A stretch of DNA of 64,000 bases from Escherichia phage Bp7: the sequence record NC_019500.1. One strand, written 5' to 3'. The notes beneath the pieces are model-generated. The model was not told the origin of the DNA. It searched no databases and saw only the letters and a program-made list of their open reading frames with translations. Both the position numbers and the translations under genes were made by a program. The stretch's first letter is position 1. Each line of letters starts with the position of its first letter. Shown here piece after piece: positions 5,891 through 52,062 of this stretch.

Positions 5891-5920
5891 GTTTACATAC
5901 GCCATGGATGGTGTTACTAT
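5891..5920 (+). promoter_or_regulatory. T4-type early promoter (-35 GTTTAC, -10 TACTAT) with conserved leader ...ctatcaactaatgaggag
   Basis: GTTTAC 5891-5896, TACTAT 5915-5920. Confidence 0.55.
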
Positions 5921-5948
5921 CTTCCTATCAACTAATGAGGAGAACAAA

Positions 5949-6215
5949 ATGGATATCAAATTATATTACGCTAAACACAAAGTTACAGGTATGGTTGTTG
6001 CCGCTATGTATGACGCGTCGGGTGAAGGTGATGATGTTACTACAGAGTTATCTCTTTCTGATTGTAAATTTCTCCGTCCCTTAATCGCATCAAAGGAAGA
6101 TTTAGAAAAGCTTATTGATGGAAAACTGGATAATGTTGACGGCATAGATATTCTTTATGACCTCCGCACGGCATTGTACAGGGGATTGATTGAGATAAAA
6201 GAGGTGGTGTTTTGA
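5949..6215 (+). CDS. hypothetical protein (88 aa)
   Basis: ATG 5949 preceded by SD gaggag in conserved leader. Confidence 0.45.
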   Translation: MDIKLYYAKHKVTGMVVAAMYDASGEGDDVTTELSLSDCKFLRPLIASKEDLEKLIDGKLDNVDGIDILYDLRTALYRGLIEIKEVVF

Positions 6216-6305: not shown

Positions 6306-6358
6306 GTATACATCTCCATTAATCATGATATTATAGACCTATCAACTAATGGAGATGA
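6306..6358 (+). promoter_or_regulatory. PeSL-like early promoter inside an 11-bp perfect inverted repeat that includes the SD of the downstream ORF
   Basis: -35 GTATAC 6306-6311, -10 TATTAT 6329-6334; arms catctccatta (6311-6321) and taatggagatg (6348-6358). Confidence 0.5.
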
Positions 6359-6360
6359 TT

Positions 6361-6480
6361 ATGAAAAACTTACTTAAAGCAATTTGGAACATGTTTGTGT
6401 TGTTAATGGTATTGAGCATTTTCCCAATCGTTTTTATGATTGACCATGTACGTGTATTCTTTAACTTCTGAGGAAAATAT
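6361..6480 (+). CDS. small hydrophobic membrane peptide (39 aa)
   Basis: MKNLLKAIWNMFVLLMVLSIFPIVFMIDHVRVFFNF; SD ggag 3 nt upstream. Confidence 0.35.
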
Positions 6481-6704: not shown

Positions 6705-7049
6705 ATGTCTAAATTATTTTTTGGTAATCGCAACATTATGTTCTTTAAACAGATTAGCATGTCAGAAACATTTGATTTAAGTTATTCGGGTGACACAAAA
6801 GCTGTTAACCTTAAAAATTTGGTGTCTGCAGAATTTGCATTCTATCAGGACCCTGAAACTGGTTTCTATAAATTTATTAAGTTCCGCATGACTATGGACC
6901 GCGATTATCGCGATGTTTATTATACAAGTTATGAGAGTGCTATCAATGCAATTCGCGAAGCTTATGGATTGGATTCGTTGTCTCTTGACCGCCTGTATAA
7001 TGCAAGCCTTTACACCAGCGGATTTATTTTAGAACAACTTCAAAAATAG
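6705..7049 (+). CDS. hypothetical protein (114 aa)
   Basis: ATG 6705 with SD aaggaaaa; in frame with ORF 6567..7049. Confidence 0.4.
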   Translation: MSKLFFGNRNIMFFKQISMSETFDLSYSGDTKAVNLKNLVSAEFAFYQDPETGFYKFIKFRMTMDRDYRDVYYTSYESAINAIREAYGLDSLSLDRLYNASLYTSGFILEQLQK

Positions 7050-7085
7050 TTTACAACCTCGAGAATCATGTTATAATGGTTCTCG
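7049..7085 (+). promoter_or_regulatory. T4-type early promoter (-35 GTTTAC, -10 TATAAT) with flanking 6-bp inverted repeat cgagaa/ttctcg
   Basis: GTTTAC 7049-7054, TATAAT 7072-7077, 17-bp spacer. Confidence 0.6.
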
Positions 7086-7126
7086 TTGACTGGATAACAA
7101 AACATTAATCTACTGAGGAAATTGAT

Positions 7127-7576
7127 ATGAATACTTATATGACTCGCCGTAACGTTCTGTCTGCTGGTGCTACTACTGTTGCTTATGTTAAGAACGGTGA
7201 ATACCAAAATGGTAAACCTTCTAAAGAAATCTCTGCTCAGCCAGGCTTCTACTTCTTTGTTAAAGGTGGAGCTGATTCTCGTGTCGTAGCGGCTCGTTTT
7301 TATGTCGGTAATCAACGTTCGGCCCAAGGGCTCGACGGTATCGTGGCTAACATTCGTAAGAAACGTTCTCAATCAGCTCGCACTATGGCAGTGAACGGTG
7401 TTGTGTATGAAGTTCTTTATGTACCGGCTTCTAAGATGAAACCCCTGACTACAGGTTTTGGTAAGGGTCAAATTGCAATGGCTTTCACACGTAATCATAG
7501 TTCCGACCTCCAGACACTGGAAGAAATGAACCGTATGTTGGCTGATAACTTTAAATTCATCCTTCAGGCTTACTAA
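7127..7576 (+). CDS. ndd: Ndd nucleoid-disruption protein
   Basis: 149 aa; conserved segments [30 protein letters not shown] and C-terminal [17 protein letters not shown] matching T4 Ndd. Confidence 0.85.
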
Positions 7577-7962: not shown

Positions 7963-9291
7963 ATGGAATTAACATCTCGTGGTTTAAAAAGTATTATCGA
8001 CAACGAAGCATTGGCTTATGCAATGTATACTGTCGAAAACCGAGCCATTCCGAATATGATTGATGGCTTTAAACCTGTACAACGGTTTGTAGTTGCTCGT
8101 TGTCTTGATATGGCTCGTGGTAATAAAGAAAAATTCCACAAACTAGCTTCTATTGCTGGCGGCGTAGCCGACCTTGGATATCACCACGGTGAAGGTTCTG
8201 CTCAGGAAGCAGGGGCTTTGATGGCTAACACATGGAACAACAACTATCCATTGTTAGACGGTCAAGGTAACTTTGGTTCCCGATTGGTTCAAAAAGCTGC
8301 AGCCTCTCGTTATATCTTTGCACGTATTGGAAGTAACTTTGCAAAAGTTTATAAGGACACAGAATATGCTCCGGTTCATGCGGATGTCGAACATAAGCCA
8401 CCGGCTTTTTATCTGCCTATTATTCCTACTGTTCTTCTTAATGGCGTTTCCGGTATTGCAACTGGCTATGCAACTAATATTCTTCCTCATAGTTTTGATT
8501 CTGTTAAGAAAGCTGTATTGCAAGTTCTTCAGGAAAAACGAGTAACCAAACCCAAAGTGGCTTATCCTGAATTCCGTGGTGAAGTTGTTGAGATTGAACC
8601 TGGTAGTTATGAGATTCGTGGAACGTATAAGTTCACATCCCGAACCCAAATGCATATCACGGAAATCCCATACAAATACGACCGTGAAACATATGTGGCT
8701 AAGGTATTAGACCCTCTGGAAGACAAAGGGTATATCACATATGATGATGACTGTGACGAGAACGGTTTTGGCTTCAAGGTTAAGATTCGTAAAGAATACG
8801 AATTGCCTACTGATGAAAACAAGAAGCATGAAAAAATCATGAAGGACTTCGGGTTAATCGAACGTCGTTCACAAAACCTGACTGTCATTAATGAAAAAGG
8901 TAAACTTAAGGTTTACGAAGATGCAGTTGAACTGATTCGTGATTTCGTTGAGGTCCGTAAGACCTTTGTACAGAAACGTATTGATGGTAAAATCATCGAA
9001 ACTGAAGAAGCTTTCAAACTGGCATTGGCTAAAGCCACATTTATCAAAGATGTTATTGATGGTGTAGTGGTTATCCAAGGTAAGACCCGTAAGGTTTTAA
9101 CCGAAGAATTGACCGGTAATAAAGTCTATGGCGAATATGCCGATAAACTAGTGGCCATGAACATTTTCCATATCACTTCTGACGAAGCCAAGAAACTGGC
9201 CCTCGAAGCCAAGGCTAAGAAAGAAGAGCATCAATATTGGAAAACCACTGATGTTGTAACTGAGTATGTTAAAGATTTGGAGGCTCTATGA
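7963..9291 (+). CDS. 52: DNA topoisomerase II medium subunit (GyrA-like)
   Basis: 442 aa, same length as T4 gp52; motifs AIPNMIDGFKPVQR and active-site region ASRYIFARI. Confidence 0.9.
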   Translation: MELTSRGLKSIIDNEALAYAMYTVENRAIPNMIDGFKPVQRFVVARCLDMARGNKEKFHKLASIAGGVADLGYHHGEGSAQEAGALMANTWNNNYPLLDGQGNFGSRLVQKAAASRYIFARIGSNFAKVYKDTEYAPVHADVEHKPPAFYLPIIPTVLLNGVSGIATGYATNILPHSFDSVKKAVLQVLQEKRVTKPKVAYPEFRGEVVEIEPGSYEIRGTYKFTSRTQMHITEIPYKYDRETYVAKVLDPLEDKGYITYDDDCDENGFGFKVKIRKEYELPTDENKKHEKIMKDFGLIERRSQNLTVINEKGKLKVYEDAVELIRDFVEVRKTFVQKRIDGKIIETEEAFKLALAKATFIKDVIDGVVVIQGKTRKVLTEELTGNKVYGEYADKLVAMNIFHITSDEAKKLALEAKAKKEEHQYWKTTDVVTEYVKDLEAL

Positions 9292-9392
9292 GCCTTGGAG
9301 TCGAGTTCTTGTTACTCTGTATCTTTGCTGTTATCCTAGGCCTGGCGACAGGCTTAGCTATAGGTTTAATAGCAGCCAACTTTAAAAAGTAA
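9288..9392 (+). CDS. small membrane peptide (34 aa) overlapping gene 52 stop
   Basis: MSLGVEFLLLCIFAVILGLATGLAIGLIAANFKK; ATGA overlap with gene 52. Confidence 0.3.
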   Translation: MSLGVEFLLLCIFAVILGLATGLAIGLIAANFKK

Positions 9393-9414
9393 GGAACCTT
9401 CGGGTTCCTTTTTT
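9393..9414 (+). terminator. rho-independent terminator (GGAACC-UUCG-GGUUCC then T6)
   Basis: perfect stem, UUCG loop, TTTTTT. Confidence 0.65.
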
Positions 9415-9432: not shown

Positions 9433-9461
9433 GTTTACATCTGCTTTAAACATGATACTAT
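9433..9461 (+). promoter_or_regulatory. T4-type early promoter, member of the near-identical cassette gtttacatctgctttaaacatgatactatagacctatcaa
   Basis: GTTTAC 9433-9438, TACTAT 9456-9461, 17-bp spacer. Confidence 0.6.
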
Positions 9462-9481
9462 AGACCTATCAAAACAACAGA

Positions 9482-9715
9482 GTGAAATGGAGATACAAAA
9501 TGAACAAGATGAAAAATACCCAAAACGCTACCGTCCGTTTCGGTAAAGTTAAACCTGGCATGAATGCTAAACGTAAAGAACTAGTTGAAAAACTAAATTG
9601 GTTGGAAGTAGAGATAAATTCCTTAGTAGTTCGCGGCTCTAATGGTCGTGAACTGGAAAAACTCCGTGAAGGAAAAGCTGCTTTAATCGCCGAGATTAAA
9701 GACCTATCAATCTAA
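9482..9715 (+). CDS. hypothetical small basic protein (start 9482, 9500 or 9509)
   Basis: 77-aa ORF downstream of early promoter. Confidence 0.4.
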   Translation: MKWRYKMNKMKNTQNATVRFGKVKPGMNAKRKELVEKLNWLEVEINSLVVRGSNGRELEKLREGKAALIAEIKDLSI

Positions 9716-9756
9716 GTAATTTTTACCAGAGCTCTTGAAAAAGAGCTCAAAATAAA

Positions 9757-9785
9757 GTTTACTTCTGCTTTAAACATGATACTAT
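9757..9785 (+). promoter_or_regulatory. T4-type early promoter (second copy of the cassette) preceded by hairpin gagctctt/aagagctc
   Basis: GTTTAC 9757-9762, TACTAT 9780-9785. Confidence 0.6.
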
Positions 9786-9820
9786 AGACCTATCAAATAA
9801 ATGGTTATCGGAGATACAAA

Positions 9821-10455
9821 ATGTCTAAAATTACTTATATCATCAAAGCTTCTGAAGACGCCCTGAATGAAAAAACGGCTTCGATCTTAGTACATATCAT
9901 CAAGCATAACTTCATCACTTCAGGCGAAGTCCGTGAAGCCCTGAGTGAGCAATTTAGTGCTGCGGTAGTTAACTCTAATATCGGTGTATTAATTAAGAAA
10001 GGATTCATCGAAAATCTGGTGACGGACTAGTGGCTACAGGTGAAGCAATGGACCTAGTTCAAAAAGCTGCTGACTTGTTCGCTTCTGAAAATGCTCCAGA
10101 GATGTTGGAAAAACGTAAAACGCGTAGTTCACGTGGTGTTACTCCTGAAATGGTAACACTGGCTGATGAAGTTAAAGCTTTATTAGAAGACCGTATCGAG
10201 ATTCGTGAAATTGCTGAAAACCGTAGCAACCTTGAAGTTCGATTCGCTAAACGTACCAACGGTATTCGTCAAATCGAAGTCCGTCGTGATGGAATGATGC
10301 GTATCTTCGGTTATAATATGACTGATAAAGAAAAACAAGTGTTTACTTCCTTGAATCTTGATGTTAAGATTAAGACTGGTGGTAAGAATACTTATATCGA
10401 CTTCCAAAACGTATCATCTGAAGTTATCAAAACCGTAACCAACGCAATTATCTGA
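9821..10455 (+). CDS. motA: MotA middle-transcription activator; reading frame needs a 1-nt correction at the A-run 10011-10014 (ORFs 9821..10030 and 10030..10455)
   Basis: N-terminal ORF MSKITYIIKASEDALNEKTASIL...NSNIGVLIKKGFIE and C-terminal ORF ...SENAPEMLEK...KRTNGIRQIEV...MRIFGYNM match T4 MotA domains; the +1 frame across the junction reads KSGDGLVATGEA, continuous with the T4-like sequence. Confidence 0.75.
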
Positions 10456-11989: not shown

Positions 11990-12148
11990 ATGAGTCATAA
12001 CTTAGAGAATACCGTAACAGGCATGCGTACACGTGAGCAGGAGTGCTTTGAGGAATTCCTGGGAGCTGATTTTAAGTTCCAGGAACCAATAGAAGAGATG
12101 TATCAGGAATATGTTAAAAAGAACGAAGAACATGTTTACAATCCCTAA
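11990..12148 (+). CDS. possible small acidic protein (52 aa)
   Basis: ATG 11990 after ggtaaagg SD-like sequence; 3' end overlaps the asiA promoter. Confidence 0.3.
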   Translation: MSHNLENTVTGMRTREQECFEEFLGADFKFQEPIEEMYQEYVKKNEEHVYNP

Positions 12149-12162
12149 GGATATGTTAGTAT
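12134..12162 (+). promoter_or_regulatory. T4-type early promoter for asiA (-35 GTTTAC, -10 TAGTAT)
   Basis: GTTTAC 12134-12139, TAGTAT 12157-12162. Confidence 0.55.
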
Positions 12163-12203
12163 AGCCCTATCAGATAATGACGTACTGAATTGAAGAGAAT
12201 ATT

Positions 12204-12479
12204 ATGACTAAAATTGAAATTGTTTCCGAAATTGCTACTATTGTTTCCATTTTGATTAAAACGGATTGTGAAGACATCATGCAACGTCGTGATGAGTTTA
12301 TTGCCTTTTTGAATGAGTTAGGTATTCGTAATGAACATGGAAAGGAACTTAATGGTTTGTCTTATAACAAATTATTTAAGTCATTAACTGAAGATGAACG
12401 TGATACTCTTATTGAGCAATTTAATGAAGGGTATGAAGATATACACCGCTATCTAATGATGTATACCTCCAATTTTTAA
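12204..12479 (+). CDS. asiA: AsiA anti-sigma-70 factor
   Basis: 91 aa; IVSILIK, FIAFLNE and C-terminal LIEQFNEGYEDIHRYLMMYT closely match remembered T4 AsiA. Confidence 0.8.
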   Translation: MTKIEIVSEIATIVSILIKTDCEDIMQRRDEFIAFLNELGIRNEHGKELNGLSYNKLFKSLTEDERDTLIEQFNEGYEDIHRYLMMYTSNF

Positions 12480-23199: not shown

Positions 23200-23229
23200 G
23201 TTTACTTCCTTAAAACCCATGATATAATG
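23200..23229 (+). promoter_or_regulatory. T4-type early promoter for rnh (-35 GTTTAC, -10 TATAAT)
   Basis: GTTTAC 23200-23205, TATAAT 23224-23229. Confidence 0.55.
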
Positions 23230-23259
23230 GACCTCTCAACTACTTGAACAGAGGTTCAT

Positions 23260-24207
23260 ATGAACGATTTAGATTTTTTACTTCCTGAAGAAGACCAACA
23301 AAAAGATGGATTTTTACTCCTAGATTTCAGCCAAATCATTATGGCGGCGGCTTTCCAAGAGTTTGGTGAGAATGCTGGATTTCCTAAAGTAACTACCGCA
23401 ATGCTTCGACACCTCGTGTTGAATTCAATTAAGAAAAACATTAAAGACTTCCGTAAACAAGGTTACAACCAATTAATTATTTGTGTTGATAACTCCAAAT
23501 CAGGTTATTGGCGTCGTCGTTATTCTTCTTATTATAAGAAAAACCGTGCTAAGGCTCGTGACGAATCACCATTTGATTGGGAAGGTTTATTCACAGCAAT
23601 GCATATTATTGTTGATGAACTGGAACAAAACATGCCTTATATTGTTATGAATATCGATACAATCGAAGCTGACGACCATATTGCTGTTTTAACCCGAATC
23701 CTTACGGCTTTAGGCCACCCTGTTATGATTGGTTCTTCTGATGGTGACTTTACCCAACTTCATAAATTCCCTGGTGTAAAACAATGGTCCCCAATGCAGA
23801 AAAAATTCGTCAAAACAAAATCTGGTGATGCATTGCTTGATTGCGTGACTAAGGTTGTTAAAGGTGACCGTAAAGATAACGTCGCGAGTATTAAAGTTCG
23901 TGGTGATTATTGGTTGACCATGGTTGAAGGCGAGCGTACTCCTAGCACTCGTGCCAAGGAACTTGAAGCAATTGCTCTTAATTATTATGACCATGATATA
24001 ATTAAAACACTTCTTACTGAAGAACAATATGAACGTTTCTGTGAAAACCAAATCTTAATTGATATGGACTTTATTCCGGATGATATTGTTGCTTTAATTA
24101 CTGAAAGATATAATACGTATAACAAACCTTCGAAATCTAAAGTTTATCCTTATTTCGTTAAATCGGGTTTGTCTAAACTAACCGCTACAGTAGCTGATTT
24201 TTATTAA
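23260..24207 (+). CDS. rnh: RNase H (5'-3' exonuclease/flap endonuclease)
   Basis: 315 aa; LNSIK, CVDN.KSGYWRR..YYKKNR, EADDHIAVL, SSDGDFTQLHK, KDNVASIKVR match T4 RNase H. Confidence 0.9.
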   Translation: MNDLDFLLPEEDQQKDGFLLLDFSQIIMAAAFQEFGENAGFPKVTTAMLRHLVLNSIKKNIKDFRKQGYNQLIICVDNSKSGYWRRRYSSYYKKNRAKARDESPFDWEGLFTAMHIIVDELEQNMPYIVMNIDTIEADDHIAVLTRILTALGHPVMIGSSDGDFTQLHKFPGVKQWSPMQKKFVKTKSGDALLDCVTKVVKGDRKDNVASIKVRGDYWLTMVEGERTPSTRAKELEAIALNYYDHDIIKTLLTEEQYERFCENQILIDMDFIPDDIVALITERYNTYNKPSKSKVYPYFVKSGLSKLTATVADFY

Positions 24208-24770: not shown

Positions 24771-25420
24771 TTAAGATTCGCATGCCACCAAACAATAACC
24801 GTATGGTGAACGGCAAAAGTGTATATTCCCTATATTTGATGTTAAAGCATCATTTCAACGCCAAATACGACGTTATCAAATACAACTGGGTCATGCGAAT
24901 CTCTGATACGGCTTATCAAAAACGTCGTGACAAATATTTCTTTGAGAAATTGAGTGATAAATACACTTTGAAAGAGCTTGCTCTTATATTCATGAGTAAC
25001 TTGGTAGCTAACCAAGACGCATGGATTGGCGACATCAGTGATGCTGACGCCTTAGTCTTTTACCGAGAATATATCGGTAGACTTAAAAGAATAAAACAAG
25101 TTTTTGAGGATGATATCAAAAACATTTATTATTTTAGTAAGAAAGTGGAAGTTCAAGCGCTTTCTGAAATTTTTGATTATAATAAAAAAGTTAACTCGAG
25201 CTATATTTTTAAGCTCCTTCAATCGAATGTTATTTCATTCGAAACGTTTATTTTGCTTGATTCATTTATGGATATAATTGATAAGCACGATGAAAAGACT
25301 AACGATTTAGTGTGGTCTAAGTATTCGACTAAATTAAATGCTTACAAAAAAATTCTTATAGTAGATTCTATTGAGGCTCGTAAATTGTTCATTGAAACAA
25401 TTAAGGGTTGTAAATTTTGA
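24767..25420 (+). CDS. 59: gp59 helicase-loading protein
   Basis: 217 aa (same as T4); KSVYSLYLM.K.H.N.KYDVIKYNW.MR.SD.AYQKRRDKYFF.KLS.KY.LKELALIF.SNLVANQDAWIGDISDADALVFYREYIGRLK almost identical to T4 gp59. Confidence 0.9.
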   Translation: MIKIRMPPNNNRMVNGKSVYSLYLMLKHHFNAKYDVIKYNWVMRISDTAYQKRRDKYFFEKLSDKYTLKELALIFMSNLVANQDAWIGDISDADALVFYREYIGRLKRIKQVFEDDIKNIYYFSKKVEVQALSEIFDYNKKVNSSYIFKLLQSNVISFETFILLDSFMDIIDKHDEKTNDLVWSKYSTKLNAYKKILIVDSIEARKLFIETIKGCKF

Positions 25421-26052
25421 ATATAGTTTATAAAATGACTTGGCTTAATCGTCAGGCTAATAATATTAAGCCGTTTTCGTACATAGGTTCTAAAACTAAT
25501 TGTACTTTTGAAAATGGCGTGATTATTGACTGTAAAGGTAAAGAGTATTGGACCTCTTGCGAGCAATCAAGATTTAAAGAGGCCATCGAAGAAGAAAAAC
25601 CTATTGTTGAAATTTTGGCTATAACGCCATTTGATATTGTTATTAATATTGAACGTTCAGAACAATTGGAAGTTCAAGCTAGAGATAATGATGATTATTT
25701 TAATTTGGTTTATGCCGGTGGCGGATTTGGAGTCTTTGGATGCACTCACCCAGCCAAACGTCCTGAAGTTAGAGCCCATATGAAAGCTGCTAACTATATG
25801 AATCAACCCGATTACCGTCCTTGGAAAACTTCTAGAGCAAACCCTTTAGATTGGATGCTTAGTGATATTGCTTATACTAATTATTGTATAATTAATTCTA
25901 GTGGAAGAGCTTGTGGATGGAGGCGTCTCATTAACTCTGGTATAAATGTTAGTGAAACTACATCAAAGAGTATGATTAAACAATTTAATGAGGGTTGGGT
26001 TCCTAATGATGACCCTGAATTCATTAAGTTAAAAATGCTTTATTCGAAGTGA
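25417..26052 (+). CDS. ORF at the segG position; possible degenerate GIY-YIG-type homing endonuclease (start TTG 25417 or ATG 25435)
   Basis: inserted between 59 and 32 where T4 carries segG; N-terminus IVYK...PFSYIGSKT loosely resembles GIY...YIG; overlaps gp59 stop. Confidence 0.4.
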   Translation: MNIVYKMTWLNRQANNIKPFSYIGSKTNCTFENGVIIDCKGKEYWTSCEQSRFKEAIEEEKPIVEILAITPFDIVINIERSEQLEVQARDNDDYFNLVYAGGGFGVFGCTHPAKRPEVRAHMKAANYMNQPDYRPWKTSRANPLDWMLSDIAYTNYCIINSSGRACGWRRLINSGINVSETTSKSMIKQFNEGWVPNDDPEFIKLKMLYSK

Positions 26053-26150
26053 TATATAATTACTTCATCTTCAAAACCTAGTTATCAAGGTAAACGTGAT
26101 AACAACAACTGTTAATAAATTTATTAAATATATCAAATAAGGTAAATAAT

Positions 26151-27078: not shown

Positions 27079-27103
27079 GGGAAGACTTCGGTCTTCCCTT
27101 TTT
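27079..27103 (+). terminator. rho-independent terminator after gene 32 (GGGAAGAC-UUCG-GUCUUCCC then T5)
   Basis: perfect stem-loop plus T-run. Confidence 0.65.
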
Positions 27104-27114
27104 GGCATTTAATG

Positions 27115-27143
27115 GTTTACAATGCCTTTAAACATGATACTAT
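27115..27143 (+). promoter_or_regulatory. T4-type early promoter (cassette variant ggtttacaatgcctttaaacatgatactatagacc)
   Basis: GTTTAC 27115-27120, TACTAT 27138-27143. Confidence 0.6.
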
Positions 27144-27173
27144 AGACCTTATCAACTACATGAGGAAATAAAA

Positions 27174-27536
27174 ATGGAAACTGGTAAAACTTACGCATTA
27201 GACCCTTCTTCTAAAAGAAAATTCATTGAGGGTAGTCCTGACGATAACTCACGTATGGTCAAACTGATGGAACAACACGGTGGTTCCTTTAAAGTCCTGG
27301 ATATGTGTTATATCGACGGTGATTATTTTGTTGAAAAAGTTGAAATGAAAGACGGTACTATCTTAGATAGCCTAGATAATGCTGATGAATATTTTGAACT
27401 CGCTGAATGGGAATTCAAACACTTCATAGAAGTAGATGATACCCCTGTAATAGATATCCAAACCATTCATGTACAAGTCAATCATAAAAATGCGGCAGAA
27501 GTTGTTGCCTTGATTAAAGCTACCTTTGGAATTTAA
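27174..27536 (+). CDS. hypothetical protein (120 aa; frd.3 position)
   Basis: ORF after early promoter and SD gaggaaa. Confidence 0.5.
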   Translation: METGKTYALDPSSKRKFIEGSPDDNSRMVKLMEQHGGSFKVLDMCYIDGDYFVEKVEMKDGTILDSLDNADEYFELAEWEFKHFIEVDDTPVIDIQTIHVQVNHKNAAEVVALIKATFGI

Positions 27537-27800: not shown

Positions 27801-27829
27801 GTTTACATCTGCTTTAAACATGATACTAT
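27801..27829 (+). promoter_or_regulatory. T4-type early promoter (third near-identical cassette copy)
   Basis: GTTTAC 27801-27806, TACTAT 27824-27829; 40/40 identical to 9433-9472. Confidence 0.6.
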
Positions 27830-27861
27830 AGACCTATCAACTAATGAGTGAGGAAAATAAA

Positions 27862-28089
27862 ATGGCTAAGGTTAATATTGATATCGTTGATTTTGAATAC
27901 ACTTACGAAGTTATCCGTAATCGTTATCCTTCTTTAGTTATGACCCATATTAAAGATACTCAATTCTGTAGTATGCAAATTGAAGTCCAAGGTCCTCTTG
28001 AAGACCTTACCCGCTTTATGGCTGACGAGTATTGTGACGGTATGCACCCGGAAGACGCTAAATTTTATACGGGCTTAATTCAAAAATAA
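27862..28089 (+). CDS. hypothetical protein (75 aa)
   Basis: ATG 27862 after leader ctaatgagtgaggaaaataaa; the 27844 ATG lies in the SD region and is rejected. Confidence 0.45.
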
Positions 28090-28123
28090 GTTTACACCAG
28101 GCTATGGTAGTGATACTATAGCC
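28090..28123 (+). promoter_or_regulatory. T4-type early promoter with 7-bp inverted repeat aggctat/atagcct around the -10
   Basis: GTTTAC 28090-28095, TACTAT 28114-28119. Confidence 0.55.
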
Positions 28124-28144
28124 TTATCAACTAAGGAGAATAAA

Positions 28145-29830
<1,686 letters not shown>

Positions 29831-32561: not shown

Positions 32562-33236
32562 ATGTCTACAGTTTTTAATACTACCCCAGTTGATGTTTTA
32601 GTCGAGCCGATGTTCTTTGGTTCAGGATTAGGTATCGCCCGTTATGATATCCAACGTCATAAAGTGTTCGAAGAGCTTTGTGAAAAGCAACTATCATTTT
32701 TCTGGCGTCCAGAGGAAGTTAACTTGATGATGGACTCTGCGCAGTTAATAAGCTTCCAGAGTTCCAACAAAATATATTTACCAATAACTTGAAATATCAG
32801 TCGCTTTTGGACAGTATTCAGGGCCGGGCTCCTTCTGCTGCACTCCAAGCCTTGATTTCTGACCCTAGCCTTGATACATGGGTGGCAACATGGACCTTTA
32901 GTGAAACTATTCACTCGCGTTCGTATACCCATATCATGCGTAACCTCTATACAGACCCATCTAAGGTATTTGATGAAATTCTGTTAGATGACGCTATCAT
33001 GAAGCGCGCTGAATCCATTGGTCGTTATTATGATGACGTTATTGAGAAAACTAGATATTGGCAGAATGCTAAAGCTGATATTGAGTACCAAAAAGAAATT
33101 AACGCAGACGAAGATGATATTGAAGATGCCATAGAGCATGAGATGTATTGGAAACGTGAACTGATGCGTTCTCTTTATCTCTGTTTGCATGTTATCAATG
33201 CCTTAGAAGCTATTCGTTTTTATGTATCTTTTGCGT
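32562..33236 (+). CDS. nrdB: ribonucleotide reductase small subunit, exon 1; apparent 1-nt frameshift near 32723-32750 (ORFs 32562..32792 and 32789..33238)
   Basis: N-terminus ...FFWRPEEV in one frame; downstream NrdB motifs [35 protein letters not shown] in the -1 frame; exon ends with U at 33236. Confidence 0.8.
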
Positions 33237-33320
33237 AAAATGCGCCTTTAAACGGTAACGTTTATCGAAAACTCCTTTAATTGCTGGAAAGTCCTTTATA
33301 GGAAAACTAGCAGCCAAGGT

Positions 33321-33354
33321 TTTGCTTGCACCTTTAATTAGTATAATATAAATA
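33321..33354 (+). promoter_or_regulatory. candidate middle (MotA-box-like + TATAAT) and late (TATAAATA) promoters upstream of the intron endonuclease ORF
   Basis: tttgcttgca 33321-33330, TATAAT 33342-33347, TATAAATA 33347-33354, SD aagagga 33367-33373. Confidence 0.35.
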
Positions 33355-33381
33355 TGATTATACTTTTAAGAGGATGCACAA

Positions 33382-34188: not shown

Positions 34189-34324
34189 TCTTCGGACGTA
34201 GGGTCAAGCGACTCGAAATGGGGAGAATCCCTCTGGGATTGTGATATAGTCTGGTCTGCATAGTAATATGTAGCAGTTCATAAGAGAACGGGTTGAGAAT
34301 TAGCGAGCTCAATCGAACATAACG

Positions 34325-34827
34325 GTACCTTTAACTTCCATAAGAACATGGAAATCATGGAAGGTAATGCTAAGATTATGAAGTTCATTGCACGTGATGA
34401 ACAGCTCCACCTTAAAGGCACCCAGTACATTATTCGTCAGCTCCAACTTGGTACTGATGGCGACGAATGGGTTAAAATTGCTCAAGAGTGCGAACAAGAA
34501 GCAGTTGATATTTTCATGGAAGTTAACCGTCAAGAAAAAGAATGGGCCGCTCACCTGTTCAAAGATGGTACTTGCCCTGGATTAAATACTCAGAACATGG
34601 GTGCTTTTGTCGATTACCTGACAGTTTCTCGTATGAAGCAATGTGGCTTACCGTGTCCTATTACTGATGCTCCTACTCGCCATCCTTATCCTTGGATTCG
34701 CGAATACCTGAACTCTGATGCTGTACAGGCTGCTCCTCAGGAAGTGGAAATCAGTTCTTACCTTGTAGCACAAATTGATAACGATGTTGATGAAAAAGTA
34801 ATGGCATCGTACAAGAAATATTTTTAA
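34325..34827 (+). CDS. nrdB: ribonucleotide reductase small subunit, exon 2
   Basis: ELMEGNAKI...ARDE.LHL.GTQ...C-terminal APQEVE.SSYLV.QID; in frame after splicing. Confidence 0.8.
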
Positions 34828-35272: not shown

Positions 35273-36421
35273 ATGATTGAATTATATGATAACTTGATGG
35301 CCCTGGTTAAAAACTCGACTAAATCTAAGTTCTTCTTTAAAGACTTTCAGAGTGCGCTAGGAGTCAACTATCGCATCTTTAGTTATAACTATGCCTCGTA
35401 CAGTGATTGGTTGGAAGACGGCGCGCTAGAGGGCCGAGGCATTATGTTTGAAATGGACGAGAACGGTCCAGTACGTATTGCTGCTCGTCCTATGCAAAAG
35501 TTCTTTAACCTTGACGAAAACCCTCTGACCATCGGTCTAGATTTGTCACCAGAAAATATTGACCTCGTAATGGCTAAGGAAGATGGTTCTCTGATTTCTA
35601 CATTCATGGACCGACAGTATCTTTCTGTTAAATCTAAAGGCTCTATCCATTCATCAATGGTGCATGATTCTTTACGGTTCCTTCGTCTCCCTGAGAACGA
35701 GGCTTTTGCCGCACGTCTAGAAGAAATCACCAAAGCTGGGTATACCTGCAACCTTGAATATGTAGCACCTACCAACCGTATCGTTCTGGCTTACCAAGAA
35801 ACAAACCTCATCCTGTTGAACGTTCGTAATAATGAAACAGGTGAATATATTCCGTATGCTGAATTGTTTAAAGATGGTGCCCTGCGTAAGCATTTGGTTG
35901 AAAGCTATGACCTCGCTGAAGGTGATTTCGTAGAAAACATCCGTAAACAAGAAGGTATTGAAGGTTTCATCTTTGTACTGAAAGATGGTACGTTCTTTAA
36001 ACTCAAAACCGCCTGGTACAGTGCACTGCACCATACCAAAGATTCCATTAACAATAACGAACGTTTGTTTGAAGTTGTAGTGGCTGGTGGAACTGATGAC
36101 CTTCGTGGATTGTTCAGTACAGATTCGTTTGCTATCGAGAAAATCGATGCCTTTGAACGTATCCATTTAGATTACTTAGAACAATCATTAGCCTTGTTAG
36201 AAGCAGCGTACTCCCAACTTAAGGGTCGCGACCGTAAGGACTACGCCGTTACTGGTCAACTAATCCTTAAGGACTTTCCAGGGTTGTTCTCTATTCTTAT
36301 GCAGGCGTACGTAGGCGGCATTAATTATGATACGGTCATGGACCAGATTAACTCTGTGTTCTTGAAAAACCATAAAGCCCAAATCCCTGAAAAATATTTG
36401 AAAGAAATTGTGGTAGAGTAG
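35273..36421 (+). CDS. rnlA: RNA ligase 1
   Basis: 382 aa; YRIFSYNYASYSDW, GIMFEMD, RPM.KFFNL.ENP, FVAPTNRIVLAYQE, LLNVRNNETGEYI match T4 Rnl1 (gp63). Confidence 0.9.
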   Translation: MIELYDNLMALVKNSTKSKFFFKDFQSALGVNYRIFSYNYASYSDWLEDGALEGRGIMFEMDENGPVRIAARPMQKFFNLDENPLTIGLDLSPENIDLVMAKEDGSLISTFMDRQYLSVKSKGSIHSSMVHDSLRFLRLPENEAFAARLEEITKAGYTCNLEYVAPTNRIVLAYQETNLILLNVRNNETGEYIPYAELFKDGALRKHLVESYDLAEGDFVENIRKQEGIEGFIFVLKDGTFFKLKTAWYSALHHTKDSINNNERLFEVVVAGGTDDLRGLFSTDSFAIEKIDAFERIHLDYLEQSLALLEAAYSQLKGRDRKDYAVTGQLILKDFPGLFSILMQAYVGGINYDTVMDQINSVFLKNHKAQIPEKYLKEIVVE

Positions 36422-36473
36422 TTTACATCTCCTCATGATGTGTTAGTATAGACTTACCAACTAATGAGGAGAA
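36421..36473 (+). promoter_or_regulatory. PeSL-like early promoter with 9-bp inverted repeat tctcctcat/atgaggaga that includes the alc SD
   Basis: GTTTAC 36421-36426, TAGTAT 36444-36449; arms 36428-36436 and 36465-36473. Confidence 0.55.
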
Positions 36474-36479
36474 AACAAA

Positions 36480-36980
36480 ATGAATATGCAAATGATTACT
36501 AACGAAATGGTTGTTAAGGCTTTTGGTGACTCTACCGACGGTATCCAAGTTTTTAAAGGTTCTCGTGCAGTAGGTTACCTGACCGATCTTCGTGTTACTT
36601 TAGCTAAAAATGCTAAAAAGAAAATCAAGCAAAAAGAATACTCTACCCGTTACGCTGAAGAAAAGCGTGAAGCCATGCCCGAAGCTGTTAACTCTATGGT
36701 TGAGTTTCTCCGAAACAACCTTTCCAAGTATGATGCTGAGGTGTTCATTAATATTAGCCAACCTAATGTTAAAATCTCAGGCATCACTTTCTATTTGATT
36801 TGTGACCCATTAAGCGACAAGTTTAATCGCCTTGGCATTTCAAGTCCTTACCATACCGCTGAAGAATTGTGTTTTATGTTCGAAACGTACAAAATTCAGT
36901 GCGAAAATCCTAAAACGGTTCTTATTAATTCCCTGTCACGTGATGACATCATCGAGATTATTACCAAATGTCTAAATTAA
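36480..36980 (+). CDS. alc: probable Alc (transcription-unfolding protein); assignment by synteny and size only
   Basis: 166 aa (T4 Alc 167 aa) between rnlA and the spanin pair. Confidence 0.45.
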   Translation: MNMQMITNEMVVKAFGDSTDGIQVFKGSRAVGYLTDLRVTLAKNAKKKIKQKEYSTRYAEEKREAMPEAVNSMVEFLRNNLSKYDAEVFINISQPNVKISGITFYLICDPLSDKFNRLGISSPYHTAEELCFMFETYKIQCENPKTVLINSLSRDDIIEIITKCLN

Positions 36981-37608: not shown

Positions 37609-37712
37609 TTGAGTCTTGTATCGATGGGTCGGATATCATTCTATTTGGCTTTACATGCTTTTGTTTTGGAATCGTGCTTAGCATGTGTATGCATGGTCTT
37701 TTTGGAAAGTAG
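37605..37712 (+). CDS. small membrane peptide (35 aa)
   Basis: MIESCIDGSDIILFGFTCFCFGIVLSMCMHGLFGK; ATGA overlap with upstream gene. Confidence 0.3.
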   Translation: MIESCIDGSDIILFGFTCFCFGIVLSMCMHGLFGK

Positions 37713-37746
37713 TTTACAAACTCTTGGGAGCAGAGTATAATGCTCC
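37712..37746 (+). promoter_or_regulatory. T4-type early promoter with 6-bp inverted repeat ggagca/tgctcc around the -10
   Basis: GTTTAC 37712-37717, TATAAT 37736-37741. Confidence 0.55.
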
Positions 37747-37775
37747 TACGGATTATAAAAATTGAGGAAATTATT

Positions 37776-38075
37776 ATGAAAGAATTATTAGAGAATTACA
37801 TCAAGTGTTCAGACAATTACGTGGATTTATGTTATGGATTGAAAATATCTGAACATGATGAAGATGCGGCGCATCTGGCATTAGATACCGCAGGTAAAGC
37901 CTTGCGTAAAGCAGCTAAAGCCCAGGGCGTTGATATGGCTGAACTAAAGAAACATTTAATTATGTTTATCTCTGCTAACGTCTCTAGCCGGTCGGGTAAC
38001 AAAGCTGTCGCAAAATCAGGTGAAGAACGCACTGAACTACGCATTCAGCTCCTCAAAACCTCTGTTGGGAATTAA
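37776..38075 (+). CDS. hypothetical protein (99 aa; pseT.1 position)
   Basis: ATG 37776 after SD gaggaaa. Confidence 0.45.
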   Translation: MKELLENYIKCSDNYVDLCYGLKISEHDEDAAHLALDTAGKALRKAAKAQGVDMAELKKHLIMFISANVSSRSGNKAVAKSGEERTELRIQLLKTSVGN

Positions 38076-39677: not shown

Positions 39678-39716
39678 GTTTACACTATGGTAGGACTGTG
39701 GTATAGTAGTCCTACC
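39678..39716 (+). promoter_or_regulatory. PeSL-like early promoter with 9-bp perfect inverted repeat ggtaggact/agtcctacc around the -10
   Basis: GTTTAC 39678-39683, TATAGT 39702-39707; arms 39689-39697 and 39708-39716. Confidence 0.55.
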
Positions 39717-39737
39717 GAAACAAATGAGGAAATCGAA

Positions 39738-40292
39738 ATGAGCCAGTTCTTTGAAGAGCGTAAGTTTTATAAGTTCGTTGGTGAATACACTAAAAACAAA
39801 TTCACTAATAACGGTGCTTATGGCCTCAATACAGCTTTTGCCAAGTATGTAGGTATGAACCCGTTTGAAGTTGAAATTGATTACCATAACGGGAAGCCAC
39901 GTGTAAGCCGAATTCGTGTATACGATGAGTTGATGTTTGTTGACCTGAGCAAAATCACAGGTAATCCCGATGATGCAACTAGTGTTCTTTTTAATTCAGT
40001 AGGCGCCTTTGCCCATGAATTCGAATACTTTATTGAAGTAGTACGTCCACTGGCTACTACGAGTATTGCTGTAAAGCCGGAACCTAAGCCAGTAAAAGCT
40101 ACAGCCGATTGGAAAGTGCTTATTGTTAAAAATGGTAAGATTGAAGTTCATTCTCGCCATAACACAAAGGAACAAGCCGATCGTCAGGCTGAAGAGCTTT
40201 TGACTAAGTCGTTCCAACAAGTGTGTTATATTGTTAAAGGCGACATTACCCAAGCTACCACTACCAAACAACTTAAGTTGGAGAGCATCTAA
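39738..40292 (+). CDS. hypothetical protein (184 aa)
   Basis: ATG 39738 after SD gagga; in frame with ORF 39627..40292. Confidence 0.5.
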   Translation: MSQFFEERKFYKFVGEYTKNKFTNNGAYGLNTAFAKYVGMNPFEVEIDYHNGKPRVSRIRVYDELMFVDLSKITGNPDDATSVLFNSVGAFAHEFEYFIEVVRPLATTSIAVKPEPKPVKATADWKVLIVKNGKIEVHSRHNTKEQADRQAEELLTKSFQQVCYIVKGDITQATTTKQLKLESI

Positions 40293-42804: not shown

Positions 42805-42808
42805 TTAT

Positions 42809-42833
42809 GGGACTCTTCGGAGTCCCATTTTTG
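42809..42833 (+). terminator. rho-independent terminator (GGGACUC-UUCG-GAGUCCC then T-run)
   Basis: perfect 7-bp stem, UUCG loop, TTTTTG. Confidence 0.65.
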
Positions 42834-42854: not shown

Positions 42855-42883
42855 GTGTACATCTCCGGTAGGCATGATACTAT
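42855..42883 (+). promoter_or_regulatory. T4-type early promoter (-35 GTGTAC, -10 TACTAT) followed by duplicated 45-nt leader
   Basis: GTGTAC 42855-42860, TACTAT 42878-42883. Confidence 0.5.
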
Positions 42884-42924
42884 AGACATGTACCAAATAA
42901 TACGAAAACAAACTGGAGAATAAA

Positions 42925-43257
42925 ATGAAAACTGTAAATCTGAATGCATCTGTTAAAGCTAAATGTTTCAACGGTGAATATCAAGAAACCATGTGGGTCC
43001 TGACTGCAGTTGAAGGTGATATCATCGAAGTTGAAACAACTGAAGGTATGGGTACTGATTTTACATTCACCATCGAGCTTCACAACTTCTTTACAGGTTG
43101 GATTTATGAACTGAAAACTGTAATTACTGGTCGTATTGAAGAAAACAAAAATGGTGAATTCTATTATGTTAATGCCCGTACACGTGCTGAACGTCTGATT
43201 GCTCAGATGAAAAAAGTTGGTAAACTTGATATGAAAAATTGGAATGTTGTGAAATAA
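42925..43257 (+). CDS. hypothetical protein (110 aa)
   Basis: ATG after SD ggagaa in duplicated leader. Confidence 0.5.
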   Translation: MKTVNLNASVKAKCFNGEYQETMWVLTAVEGDIIEVETTEGMGTDFTFTIELHNFFTGWIYELKTVITGRIEENKNGEFYYVNARTRAERLIAQMKKVGKLDMKNWNVVK

Positions 43258-43260: not shown

Positions 43261-43300
43261 TTTTACTTTGGTACAGGTTGTGTTATTATAGACCTGTACC
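43261..43300 (+). promoter_or_regulatory. PeSL-like early promoter with 8-bp perfect inverted repeat ggtacagg/cctgtacc around the -10
   Basis: -35 TTTTAC 43261-43266, -10 TATTAT 43284-43289; arms 43270-43277 and 43293-43300. Confidence 0.5.
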
Positions 43301-43330
43301 AAATAATACGAAAACAAACTGGAGAATAAA

Positions 43331-43696
43331 ATGAACTACATCAACTTCGAACGTAAATATGTTTCTAACGGTATCGCTGGTTCTTCTGAAGTTATTTGCC
43401 TGTGGAAACACAACAACGGCGCGGTGTGCGAAATCGAACAGTGCATGACTCCTAACTACGTTTATATGCGCTTTGAAAATGGTATTACGGTTTCAATCAC
43501 AATGGAAGGTTCTACTTTTAAAATCGCTTTAGATGATGATTTCCGTCAACGTGATTTAGGTACCCATCCTTGCTGGAACGGTTCTAATCGTAAGCTTCTG
43601 GTTAAAACCTGGATTCGTCACATCCTGAGCAACCGAGCTAAACCTGAACACCTGGAAGCAATCTTTGATGTAGTTCTGAATGAATTCGATATCTAA
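43331..43696 (+). CDS. hypothetical protein (121 aa)
   Basis: ATG after second copy of the duplicated leader. Confidence 0.5.
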   Translation: MNYINFERKYVSNGIAGSSEVICLWKHNNGAVCEIEQCMTPNYVYMRFENGITVSITMEGSTFKIALDDDFRQRDLGTHPCWNGSNRKLLVKTWIRHILSNRAKPEHLEAIFDVVLNEFDI

Positions 43697-49659: not shown

Positions 49660-51714
49660 ATGATGGAAAATTTAAACGAAGTTTTTGATAGCGATTCCGC
49701 TAAAAACTATCCAGTAATAAATCTTAAACCAGGTTCCGGTATCCCACAGATTTTCTCTATTAAAGCACCGGGTAATGATAACCTGGTTGCTCGTATGGTA
49801 TCTTATGCGTCTCAAGGAGACGCTATTAAAATGGTTAAGCCGGGCGACAAATATGTCCACGTTATTCTAATGAGTTTGTCAAGCAAGGGTGCTCCGGCTG
49901 AACTCAAAGGTGGTCTTGGTTCTGACCCACTCGGTACGCTGAATACCATTTTTGATACTGTATACGAACAAGTAAACAAACTTAAAATGGATGCGGTTTT
50001 ATTCCGTTTCCCTACCAAGAAAATGAAAGGTAAGGGCCCTACTGTTCAGCGTGTATTAGCTCGTTTGGCTATGGCTCGTACTGGTGGTAAGTTTAAAGTT
50101 GTTGATGCCATGTACCAATTCACTGGAAAACATACCTATGTTCTTTTAGTACGTCGTGGCACTAATATTGAAGATATCAAGGGTATGCCTGAAATTGATG
50201 CCGAACTTTATACTAAGGTTGAGTCCAAAGTTGGCGAAGTTTATGTTTCTAAGGAAACCGGCCAGTCCGTAAGTAAGGCCGAAGCTGTCTCGGCAAGTAT
50301 AGCTAAGGTTGAAGAGAAACGTACTGATAAGGCCGTCATTACCAAGACTAAGATTTCTCGTCGTGCTATTGCTATGTCGCAATCCTTAGAATCGTCACGA
50401 TTTGAAACTCCTATGTTTAAGAAATTTGATTCTAATGCTGCTGAATTGAATAAACCGGCTACGGCTCCTTTAATGTCAGAAGCAAATGAAATAAAGGTTA
50501 TTTCTAATTCTTTCTTGGCTTTAGAAAATACCATTAGTGCTAATACTGGTGGTATGTCGTTTAAAGACAACCTTCTTATTCCAGAAGATAAAATGGAAGA
50601 AATTAATACCGACATAAAAATGAGAGCTTTTGAGAAATTACATGGATTAAATGTGACTTCAGTAAAAGCCCTAGAAAATTATGCTTCAGTGGTTGATGAC
50701 GTCATCGAAGAATATAAAGGTCCTTGGCTTCAAAAGCTAATGGCTCAACATTCACACCTAGGTTATCACGAAGCAGTCGAGTTGGCTGAAAATTCTTGGA
50801 ATGCTATAAAGACCAAAATTATTCAACGTGAGCTGCGTGTTTACGCTCTTACCGCCGGTTGGCAATTGCATTCTATTATAGAAAATAAAGACGCGTCTCG
50901 TTATACTCCTGCCCAGAAACGTGGTATTCGTGAATATGTTGGCTCCGGTTACGAAGATATGAATAATGTTCTTTTAGGTCTCCATGACCCGAATGTAAGA
51001 AGCAGTATTCTGACTAATGAAGACATAGAAAAAGCTATCAATAACTTAGATTCTGCTTTTGAAAATGGCGAACGTCTACCACCAGGTATTACTCTTTATC
51101 GTTCCCAACGAATGATTCCTGATATTTACTTGGCTATGATTAGCAATAAAGTATTCTATTTCAGAAACTTTGTTTCAACTGCGATATATCCGAATATTTT
51201 TGGTACATGGATGACTGATTCTGGTGTTGGTCTTTTGCCTGACGAAAAACGTCGTGATGTTGCATTAGACAAATCGGATGAAGGTTTAGTATATTCGAAT
51301 AAAGATACTTTAGTAGGTATTGGTTGGGCCTTTACCGGTACAGATAAGGTAAATGTCGTTTTACCTGGTGGAGACTTGGCTCCTTCTAACGAAATGGAAG
51401 TAATTCTTCCTAGGGGTTTGATGGTCAAAATCAATAAAATTACAGATGCTTCATACAATAACGGAACTACTCGTTCTAACAATAAGTTCGTTCAAGCCGA
51501 AGTAATGACTGCAGACGAACTTAATGAAGCCGTGGTGTACGATGGTGATGCTCTGATGGAAACAGGCGAACTAGTTGTCTATAAAGAGGGTAATGAGCTT
51601 TCTTTTGATTCTTTTGTTTCTAATGAGAAGAAAAAGAAATCAGACAGAGGTCTTGGCTTGTTAGCTTCTTGTATAGATATCGACGCTCTCCAGTATAAAT
51701 TTGTACAAGGGTAG
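49660..51714 (+). CDS. Alt-like ADP-ribosyltransferase, paralog 2
   Basis: 684 aa; N-terminal region closely similar to paralog 1 (ARMVSYAS.GDAIK.VK.GDKY.HVILMSLS.KG.PAELKGGLG); ART motifs KRGIREY, FVSTAI, NEMEVILPRG; starts 1 nt after paralog 1 stop. Confidence 0.8.
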   Translation: MMENLNEVFDSDSAKNYPVINLKPGSGIPQIFSIKAPGNDNLVARMVSYASQGDAIKMVKPGDKYVHVILMSLSSKGAPAELKGGLGSDPLGTLNTIFDTVYEQVNKLKMDAVLFRFPTKKMKGKGPTVQRVLARLAMARTGGKFKVVDAMYQFTGKHTYVLLVRRGTNIEDIKGMPEIDAELYTKVESKVGEVYVSKETGQSVSKAEAVSASIAKVEEKRTDKAVITKTKISRRAIAMSQSLESSRFETPMFKKFDSNAAELNKPATAPLMSEANEIKVISNSFLALENTISANTGGMSFKDNLLIPEDKMEEINTDIKMRAFEKLHGLNVTSVKALENYASVVDDVIEEYKGPWLQKLMAQHSHLGYHEAVELAENSWNAIKTKIIQRELRVYALTAGWQLHSIIENKDASRYTPAQKRGIREYVGSGYEDMNNVLLGLHDPNVRSSILTNEDIEKAINNLDSAFENGERLPPGITLYRSQRMIPDIYLAMISNKVFYFRNFVSTAIYPNIFGTWMTDSGVGLLPDEKRRDVALDKSDEGLVYSNKDTLVGIGWAFTGTDKVNVVLPGGDLAPSNEMEVILPRGLMVKINKITDASYNNGTTRSNNKFVQAEVMTADELNEAVVYDGDALMETGELVVYKEGNELSFDSFVSNEKKKKSDRGLGLLASCIDIDALQYKFVQG

Positions 51715-51743
51715 TTTACAAACGCCAAGGATGGTGGTACTAT
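51714..51743 (+). promoter_or_regulatory. T4-type early promoter (-35 GTTTAC, -10 TACTAT)
   Basis: GTTTAC 51714-51719, TACTAT 51738-51743; leader with SD gaggag. Confidence 0.55.
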
Positions 51744-51771
51744 TACCTTACACAAACATGAGGAGAACATT

Positions 51772-52062
51772 ATGAAATCTGCATTCCGCTTTAACGGTCA
51801 AGAACTGGTAGTTGAAAACGTTATCCCTGCTTCCGAAGAGTTTGACAGTGCAGTTGGTAATGAATTGCGTCGAGTTTTCGGTGAAGATAAGCAATTTGAT
51901 ATCCGTCCTGTTGAGAACTTTTCTCATCCGGAACAAACCGAAAACATTTTTAATGGTGTAGTGACTGGTCAGCTTGAATCTGAAGCTCCTATTTCAGTTA
52001 CGGTGTTTGTTAAAAAGCAACCACTAATGACTGCAGCAGGTTTCATTTCGTTCCGTAAATAA
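51772..52062 (+). CDS. hypothetical protein (96 aa)
   Basis: ORF between own early promoter and strong terminator. Confidence 0.5.
   Translation: MKSAFRFNGQELVVENVIPASEEFDSAVGNELRRVFGEDKQFDIRPVENFSHPEQTENIFNGVVTGQLESEAPISVTVFVKKQPLMTAAGFISFRK

Follow-up and report, generated by a model that had tools for sequence, protein, structure and literature searches.

Nearly identical blocks of 40 nucleotides stand before several early genes of a T4-type phage and raise the question of whether they are only strong promoters or also repeats through which genes are gained, lost and exchanged. The window analysed here, a stretch of 64,000 nucleotides, belongs to a Dhakavirus (a T4-type phage like JS98, IME08 and WG01), is 93-98% identical to JS98, IME08 and PSD9, and is oriented in reverse to the JS98 record. 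According to the JS98 annotation, a first plus-strand block with the gene order rIIB-denB-ndd-52-(orf253)-motA-arn-asiA is followed by a minus-strand block (t-38-37-36-35-34), a second plus-strand block (rnh-dsbA-33-59-32-frd.x-frd-td-nrdA-nrdB-denA-rnlA-alc-pseT-cd-31-rIII-30.x-30-alt) and, at the end of the window, a minus-strand block of baseplate genes.

A family of sixteen putative early promoters

The 40-mer GTTTACATCTGCTTTAAACATGATACTATAGACCTATCAA was found without mismatch at 9433-9472 and 27801-27840 and with one mismatch at 9757-9796, while 100 dinucleotide-preserving shuffles contained no match, confirming the three copies listed in a preliminary description of the window. The variant copies listed there were likewise all present: the copy at 6306 has 5 mismatches, the copy at 28090 has an 18-nt spacer, and the copy at 27115 shows 8 mismatches when aligned ungapped, because its downstream block contains one extra nucleotide. 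A two-block weight matrix was made from the copies, and both strands of the window were scanned in comparison with 10 shuffled windows. Sixteen sites scored between 25 and 48 bits, and every one of them lies on the plus strand; the next best site reached 7.1 bits, and the maximum in the shuffled windows was 12.4 bits. The sites are collected in Table 1, together with the hairpins and the open reading frame associated with them. All 16 are co-oriented with the early genes and none lies on the late-gene strand. Each has sigma-70-like -35 and -10 boxes at a spacing of 17-18 nt and is followed by an SD and a start codon, with leaders extending 25-48 nt after the -10 box.

Table 1. Cassettes and associated features of the window, in order of position; genes downstream are named according to the JS98 annotation.
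Position	Strand	Feature	Remarks
5891..5951	+	Cassette, 88-aa ORF (JS98 orf262-like)	LQ5 insertion: promoter and 75-aa ORF
6306..6363	+	Cassette, 36-aa membrane peptide (ndd.4-like)	GTATAC/TATTAT; predicted spacer-SD pairing; z = -3.58
7049..7129	+	Cassette, ndd	-10 bracketed by stem; z = -2.89
9391..9410	+	Intrinsic terminator hairpin, GGAACC-UUCG-GGUUCC and T-run	3' of gp52 and 34-aa ORF, just 5' of P1
9433..9502	+	Cassette P1: GTTTAC, 17 nt, TACTAT, leader, SD GGAG, ATG of 71-aa ORF (orf253-type)	48.3 bits
9500..9715	+	Variable cargo, 71-aa ORF, homolog of JS98 orf253	Between P1 and P2; phrog_6200, function not assigned
9729..9748	+	Hairpin GAGCUCUU-GAAA-AAGAGCUC 5' of P2	z = -4.27; also in Tequatrovirus and Mosigvirus
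9757..9823	+	Cassette P2, motA early promoter: leader, SD GGAGAT, motA ATG	RegB-type site known in T4
12134..12206	+	Cassette, asiA	JS98 annotation, weight matrix
23200..23262	+	Cassette, rnh (RNase H)	JS98 annotation, weight matrix
27079..27098	+	UUCG-tetraloop hairpin	3' of gene 32, 5' of frd.2 cassette; z = -2.94
27115..27176	+	Cassette, frd.2 (120 aa)	Spacer type AATGCCTTTAAAC
27801..27864	+	Cassette, frd.3 (75 aa)	Exact motA-type 40-mer only in window and IME08; stem-loop absent
28090..28147	+	Cassette, frd.1 (79 aa)	Inverted repeat AGGCUAUGGUA/UACUAUAGCCU around -10; z = -3.13
36421..36482	+	Cassette, alc	Spacer UCUCCUCAU predicted to pair with SD AUGAGGAGA; z = -3.31
37712..37778	+	Cassette, 99-aa ORF (phrog_2364)	-10 bracketed by stem
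39678..39740	+	Sixteenth cassette, 184-aa ORF	Inverted repeat GGTAGGACT/AGTCCTACC around -10; found by PWM scan
42855..42927	+	Cassette, 30.8 (110 aa)	UUCG hairpin upstream at 42807-42828
43261..43333	+	Cassette, 30.7 (121 aa)	Perfect 12-nt inverted repeat around -10; z = -5.19
51714..51774	+	Cassette, alt.-3 (96 aa)	JS98 annotation, weight matrix

The preliminary description had assigned GTTTAC and TACTAT to every copy and had placed a small ORF of unknown function after each. T4-type sigma-70 boxes are indeed general, but the copy at 6306 departs from these hexamers; some small ORFs do follow, but the family also drives motA (from 9757), asiA, ndd, rnh and alc. The small cassette-driven ORFs all fall into existing PHROG families without an assigned function.

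Alignment of the paralogous copies revealed information peaks at an upstream A-tract, at G-TTTAC, at an invariant TG separated from the -10 box by a single base, and at TAnnAT. The discriminator has an invariant G two bases after the -10 box and then CCT, the conserved discriminator and start region being AGACCTATCAAC. The A/T fraction of the 12 nt upstream of the -35 box ranges from 0.58 to 0.92, and a TAA or TAG codon lies within approximately 10 nt of the -35 box at 5891, 7049, 9757, 27801, 28090, 39678 and 43261. The UP, -35, extended -10, -10 and discriminator elements are all contacts of the sigma-70 holoenzyme. Since the paralog profile matches that of T4 early promoters, which have been portrayed as 'über' promoters combining UP, -35, TGn and -10 elements with further consensus positions (Hinton 2010, PMC2988021), and since classical T4 early genes lie downstream, the 16 sites are assigned as putative T4-type sigma-70 early promoters, for which homology with the T4 early promoters predicts activity.

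A 59-nt query around 27801 matched 177 phage records, with 2-8 places per genome in Dhakaviruses and one in Tequatroviruses; in NBG2, the one Tequatrovirus record checked, the match falls on the motA promoter, which is preceded by the same hairpin. The 40-mer is identical at 40 of 40 positions between the window and NBG2, compared with 66.5% for the motA coding sequence and 71% for the 3' end of gp52, and at 37 of 40 positions between the window and Mosigvirus JS09, where the motA coding identity is 76%. Because this cross-genus identity is far above the coding identity, the exact 40-mer is best read from these alignments as the ancient motA promoter, which in Dhakaviruses is found at other loci as well. 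Selection acting on each position, recurrent exchange and a hidden operator are all candidate explanations for the 40/40 identity. Within the genus, where the relatives are too close, excess conservation of cassette DNA over other DNA did not appear (0.947 for the core versus 0.938 and 0.931). A scan of IMG/VR with the 32-nt core returned only 7 loci, mostly from the same isolates, and no new cargo diversity. The motA leader carries the SD GGAG, which is a RegB cleavage site in T4.

Stem-loops and predicted leader pairing

In the definition of promoter-early stem-loops (PeSLs), the stem-loop lies upstream of the -35 box, between the boxes or overlapping either box (PMC2839356). Fold tests against shuffles revealed a core-embedded stem beyond shuffle expectation in six cassettes (6306, 7049, 28090, 36421, 37712 and 43261; z from -2.6 to -5.2) and a strong upstream hairpin at four others (9433, 9757, 27115 and 42855), three of which have a UUCG tetraloop. 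The upstream hairpin at 51714 is weaker. Overall, a stem-loop was found at about 10 of the 16 sites, with the site at 39678, which has a 9-nt inverted repeat around its -10 box, lying outside the fold tests. No significant stem was detected in these tests at 5891, 12134, 23200 or 27801, nor any internal stem in the focal 40-mer, and the copy at 27801 is also without an upstream one. The label PeSL-like given in the preliminary description is thus apt at 9433 and 9757 by virtue of separate upstream hairpins, but the 40-mer has no stem of its own and the copy at 27801 has none at all. A search of the whole window against Rfam returned no known RNA family.

At two cassettes the spacer is complementary to the SD of the driven gene (6311-6357, AUCUCCAUUA/UAAUGGAGAU; 36428-36472, the pair given for alc in Table 1). 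Since the 5' arm lies in the spacer and hence inside the promoter, the spacer-SD hairpin would be possible only in transcripts that read through from upstream, which suggests that translation at 6306 and 36421 may be restricted to locally initiated mRNA. In T4, hairpins that sequester the SD in read-through transcripts control the translation of gene e, soc and I-TevI. The complementarity at 6306 and 36421 resembles these cases, although here the pairing is predicted and its 5' arm lies within an early promoter, whereas in T4 it lies upstream of a late promoter.

Variation at the gp52-motA slot and at other cassettes

Comparison with eight relatives, and with PSD9 in addition at this locus, revealed that the slot between gp52 and motA is bounded by two cassette copies and occurs in five states. 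It is empty in PSD9, FB, LQ5 and WG01, in which exactly 324 bp are missing with a junction ambiguity of 74-78 bp. The window, JS98, VR5 and CLBP2 carry the orf253-type gene. In IME08, orf253 is accompanied by a further cassette and a 74-aa ORF, resulting in three tandem cassettes. A T4-type motA.1-like ORF occupies the slot in Ec2-ASingh, and Tequatroviruses constitute the fifth state, with a different P1. The crossover point of the empty state maps to the 33-bp identical core in WG01 and to GGAGATACAAAATG in PSD9, FB and LQ5; these two different crossover points indicate at least two independent events. The Ec2-ASingh slot is a mosaic in which the upstream flank and promoter core are Dhakavirus-like, the leader and ORF Tequatrovirus-like, and the P2 leader again Dhakavirus-like, a pattern that places both crossovers inside conserved cassette blocks and identifies the slot, on sequence grounds, as an apparent intergeneric cargo replacement.

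The orf253-type gene is also present in Mosigviruses, in the same slot between two similar cassettes and with approximately 75% amino-acid identity, and is therefore not recent cargo. The suggestion that the ORFs flanked by the cassettes are the best candidates for recently acquired cargo was thus not supported: only the 71-aa ORF is variably present, and it is old, while frd.1, frd.2 and frd.3 are found in the window and in each of the eight relatives (nine genomes), with two alleles of frd.2. The 71-aa ORF is flagged as dispensable. The modular shuffling proposed in the preliminary description was upheld at this slot by the 324-bp indel with its two crossover points, the three-cassette variant of IME08 and the replacement in Ec2-ASingh. 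The alignments thus point clearly to repeated gain, loss and swapping of the intervening ORF mediated by the focal cassette pair.

Two further observations concern the genes on either side of the slot. A 34-aa hydrophobic ORF (9288-9392) overlaps the end of gene 52 and stops at the terminator; the WG01 annotation includes it as ORF261, that of JS98 does not. The motA gene (9821-10455) is broken into ORFs of 69 and 141 aa, with an A-run near 10011 of A4 in the window versus A5 in JS98, VR5 and WG01. Either the homopolymer was misread in sequencing, or motA is truly frameshifted, in which case middle-mode activation would be lost.

Promoter and ORF units bounded by cassette repeats were found at 5892 in LQ5, at 6307 in CLBP2 (a 63-aa ORF with its promoter, at the 6306 cassette) and at 9758 in IME08. 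The 30.8 allele between the cassettes at 42855 and 43261 is replaced in CLBP2 and IME08; a 55-nt block of the 42855 cassette comprising -10, leader and SD recurs at 43281-43335 with 95% identity. At the 37712 cassette, six relatives have an extra ORF inserted at the SD/ATG. Two candidates for cassette-mediated events were reclassified: the one in FB at 5950 proved on inspection to be a paralog duplication, and the additional 444/474 bp at 37713 an in-operon insertion with SD homology of only 5-14 nt. Dhakaviruses carry two divergent alleles of both frd.2 (27190-27534; METGK... versus MEIGK...) and 30.8 (42963-43256; MKTVNLN... versus MKINLNS...), and in both genes the allele replacement begins right at the cassette-driven start codon.

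Concerted variation among copies was also evident within genomes. The flanks of the frd.3 cassette are orthologous in nine genomes, but its spacer falls into three types. The window and IME08 have the motA type, FB, LQ5, WG01 and VR5 the frd.2 type, and JS98, Ec2-ASingh and CLBP2 a palindromic type. WG01 has a private AACGCC in both its frd.2 and frd.3 promoters, and IME08 a private GTGTTATTAT in two of its own copies. Lineage-specific bases are common to Mosigvirus P1 and P2 (TGCTTC, GATATTAT and GGAGAAATAAAATGTCTAAA), and Dhakavirus P1 and P2 likewise share Dhakavirus-specific bases. This concerted variation argues that the copies within a genome are homogenised.

Generality, mechanism and relation to known systems

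The generality of cassette-mediated exchange was evaluated by overlap-tolerant chaining of the window with the eight relatives, in which indels and replacements of 60 bp or more within the early regions were counted without regard to phylogeny. Of 36 distinct loci, 9 touch a cassette and 27 do not. Against a null of uniform position, in which 7.5% of the loci are expected at cassettes, the observed number is in excess (p = 0.0011). When gene boundaries are taken as the null, about 14 of the roughly 65 early gene starts counted from the FB annotation having a cassette, 9.95 loci are expected versus the 9 observed (P(>=9) = 0.70), and adding the sixteenth site only raises the expectation. Relative to other gene boundaries, the cassettes thus do not stand out as indel hotspots in this panel; they appear to be one route of modular exchange and not its main driver, and the generality of shuffling suggested in the preliminary description is overstated. 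Junction homology at the cassette events is 0-78 bp, with five of at least 31 bp; elsewhere the maximum is 28 bp and the median 0 (MWU p = 0.014).

Other insertions and duplications were noted in the window. The nrdB gene is interrupted by a 1.09-kb insertion (33234-34325; the ORFs end at 33238 and resume at 34348) that is absent in all eight relatives and contains a 268-aa ORF (33382-34188), HNH-like at its N-terminus. The inserted DNA resembles an intron or homing-endonuclease insertion; no group I intron was matched in it at Rfam gathering thresholds. Genes 59 and 32 are separated in the window (25417-26104) by 685 bp that contain a 211-aa ORF. FB and VR5 share this segment, with annotation as a SegG-like homing endonuclease, five relatives lack it, and LQ5 has a different sequence in its place. 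The region 47559-51711 comprises two tandem paralogs of alt (RNA polymerase ADP-ribosyltransferase) with approximately 74% mutual identity. Three alt-like genes are annotated in WG01, and chaining revealed approximately 2 kb of extra sequence in each of WG01 and LQ5.

Taken together, it is very probable that the blocks are sigma-70 early promoters of Dhakaviruses that, as direct repeats, also act as recombination points for the gain, loss and swapping of genes and are homogenised among themselves. The unit is composite: an A-rich UP-like tract, often with an upstream stop codon, GTTTAC, a 17-18-nt spacer ending in TGn, TAnnAT, the conserved discriminator and start region, a leader, and SD with ATG. 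Host RNA polymerase would fire from the cassettes right after infection, leading to early expression of motA, asiA, ndd, alc, rnh, frd.1-3, 30.7, 30.8, alt.-3 and a few small ORFs. The copies, being long direct repeats, would provide portable homology for general homologous recombination of the phage, the presumed pathway. A crossover between tandem copies would delete or insert the intervening promoter and ORF unit, a crossover with other phages would swap cargo, and patch conversion would make the copies within a genome alike.

Most of the driven genes are conserved core early genes, the conserved positions are those of known polymerase contact elements, and the indels are not enriched over ordinary gene boundaries, all of which would agree with strong promoters that resemble one another through selection for RNA polymerase contacts and have no role in rearrangement. 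This simpler reading is improbable in view of the spacer positions outside the contacts that are identical in several copies, the block swaps at frd.3 between orthologous flanks, the private variants common to paralogous copies in WG01, IME08 and Mosigvirus, and the indel junctions inside the repeats with overlaps of 31-78 bp. At the other extreme, the cassettes could be dedicated mobile elements, with the cassette or its stem-loop serving as the recognition target of a site-specific recombinase or helper that excises and integrates promoter and ORF mini-circles. Inverse PCR has revealed mini-circles formed between PeSLs in RB49 and phi1, and a helper protein was raised as a possibility (Arbiol 2010, PMC2839356), and the units in LQ5, CLBP2 and IME08 lie precisely at cassettes. 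The crossover points vary, however, from the core in one event to the SD block in others, and no recombinase gene is associated with the cassettes, findings on which a dedicated recombinase was rejected. Furthermore, the 40-mer lacks a stem-loop of its own, gene boundaries without cassettes are equally prone to indels, and T4-type general recombination on short homologies would be sufficient, making such elements very improbable.

The invariance of the 40-mer admits one further explanation, in which the spacer holds an operator. The motA-type spacer contains TGCTTTA (9442-9448, 9766-9772 and 27810-27816), which matches the MotA-box core perfectly and lies 7 bp from the -10 box, and it is conceivable, if quite unlikely, that through TGCTT(T/C)A at approximately -26 to -20 MotA shuts off its own promoter together with the orf253 and frd.3 copies. 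TGCTTYA is kept in the Dhakavirus, Tequatrovirus (NBG2) and Mosigvirus (JS09) copies examined, the 3 nt upstream of it varying; the block is conserved across genera at 40/40 against 66.5% for coding sequence, and the mechanism by which T4 early promoters are shut off is stated as not known (PMC2988021). On the other hand, the motif is common (46 occurrences in the window) and may be a chance match noticed post hoc, the remaining 3' spacer is equally conserved so that the conservation is not box-specific, and the frd.2-type copies carry TGCCTTTA. The distance of 7 bp also differs from the 12+/-1 bp of middle promoters, for which reason, and with a good -35 box kept, a middle-promoter function of TGCTTTA was rejected. 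An unlikely extension would make the motA promoter a 'master' cassette, all 40 nt of which are invariant across three Tevenvirinae genera for a second function, such as a MotA-box-like operator, and as shared homology for cargo exchange. MotA would then switch off its own promoter and every locus with a copied cassette, and the invariance would give Dhakaviruses, Mosigviruses and Tequatroviruses the homology with which to exchange early-gene cargo.

The reading as early promoters that double as recombination points agrees in part with the PeSLs described for RB49/phi1, PST/T4 and nt-1/KVP40 (Arbiol et al. 2010, PMC2839356; Comeau et al. 2014, PMC4122927). Common to both are an upstream stop codon in an AT-rich tract, a sigma-70 early promoter, an SD and an ATG; stem-loops upstream, between the boxes or over the -10 box; -35 and -10 sequences close to the TTTACW N17 TAYWAT consensus of PST/T4; and tandem copies around small ORFs that are variably present in close relatives, with crossovers between the -10 box and the ATG. 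The present family differs in its genus, in a stem-loop that is significant at only about 10 of 16 sites and is lacking in the focal 40-mer itself, in driving mostly conserved, named genes instead of ORFans, and in showing, in this panel, no excess of indels over gene boundaries. Recombination between neighbouring copies, known from PeSLs, is supported here by genome comparison, the 324-bp unit being present or absent with junctions inside the repeat. With the T4 motA early promoter the cassettes share the UP-like A-tract, GTTTAC, TGn, TAnnAT and the extra consensus positions, and with NBG2 all 40 positions as well as the upstream hairpin and GGAG SD. The motA-type sequence of Dhakaviruses, however, occurs at 2-8 places per genome, instead of one, before unrelated genes. 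Searches of the literature on PeSLs in JS98, IME08 or Dhakavirus yielded nothing beyond a brief reference to JS98 in the 2010 paper. The phenomenon is already published for other T4-like phages, and the Dhakavirus case is an extension of it.

These results extend the PeSL picture to the JS98/Dhakavirus group and also call for caution, as in this panel the cassettes are no more prone to indels than ordinary gene boundaries. The gp52-motA slot is an unusually clean PeSL example, with five states, mapped crossovers and one apparent intergeneric replacement, and the 16 putative promoter sites can serve directly as an early-promoter map in the annotation of Dhakavirus therapeutic phages.
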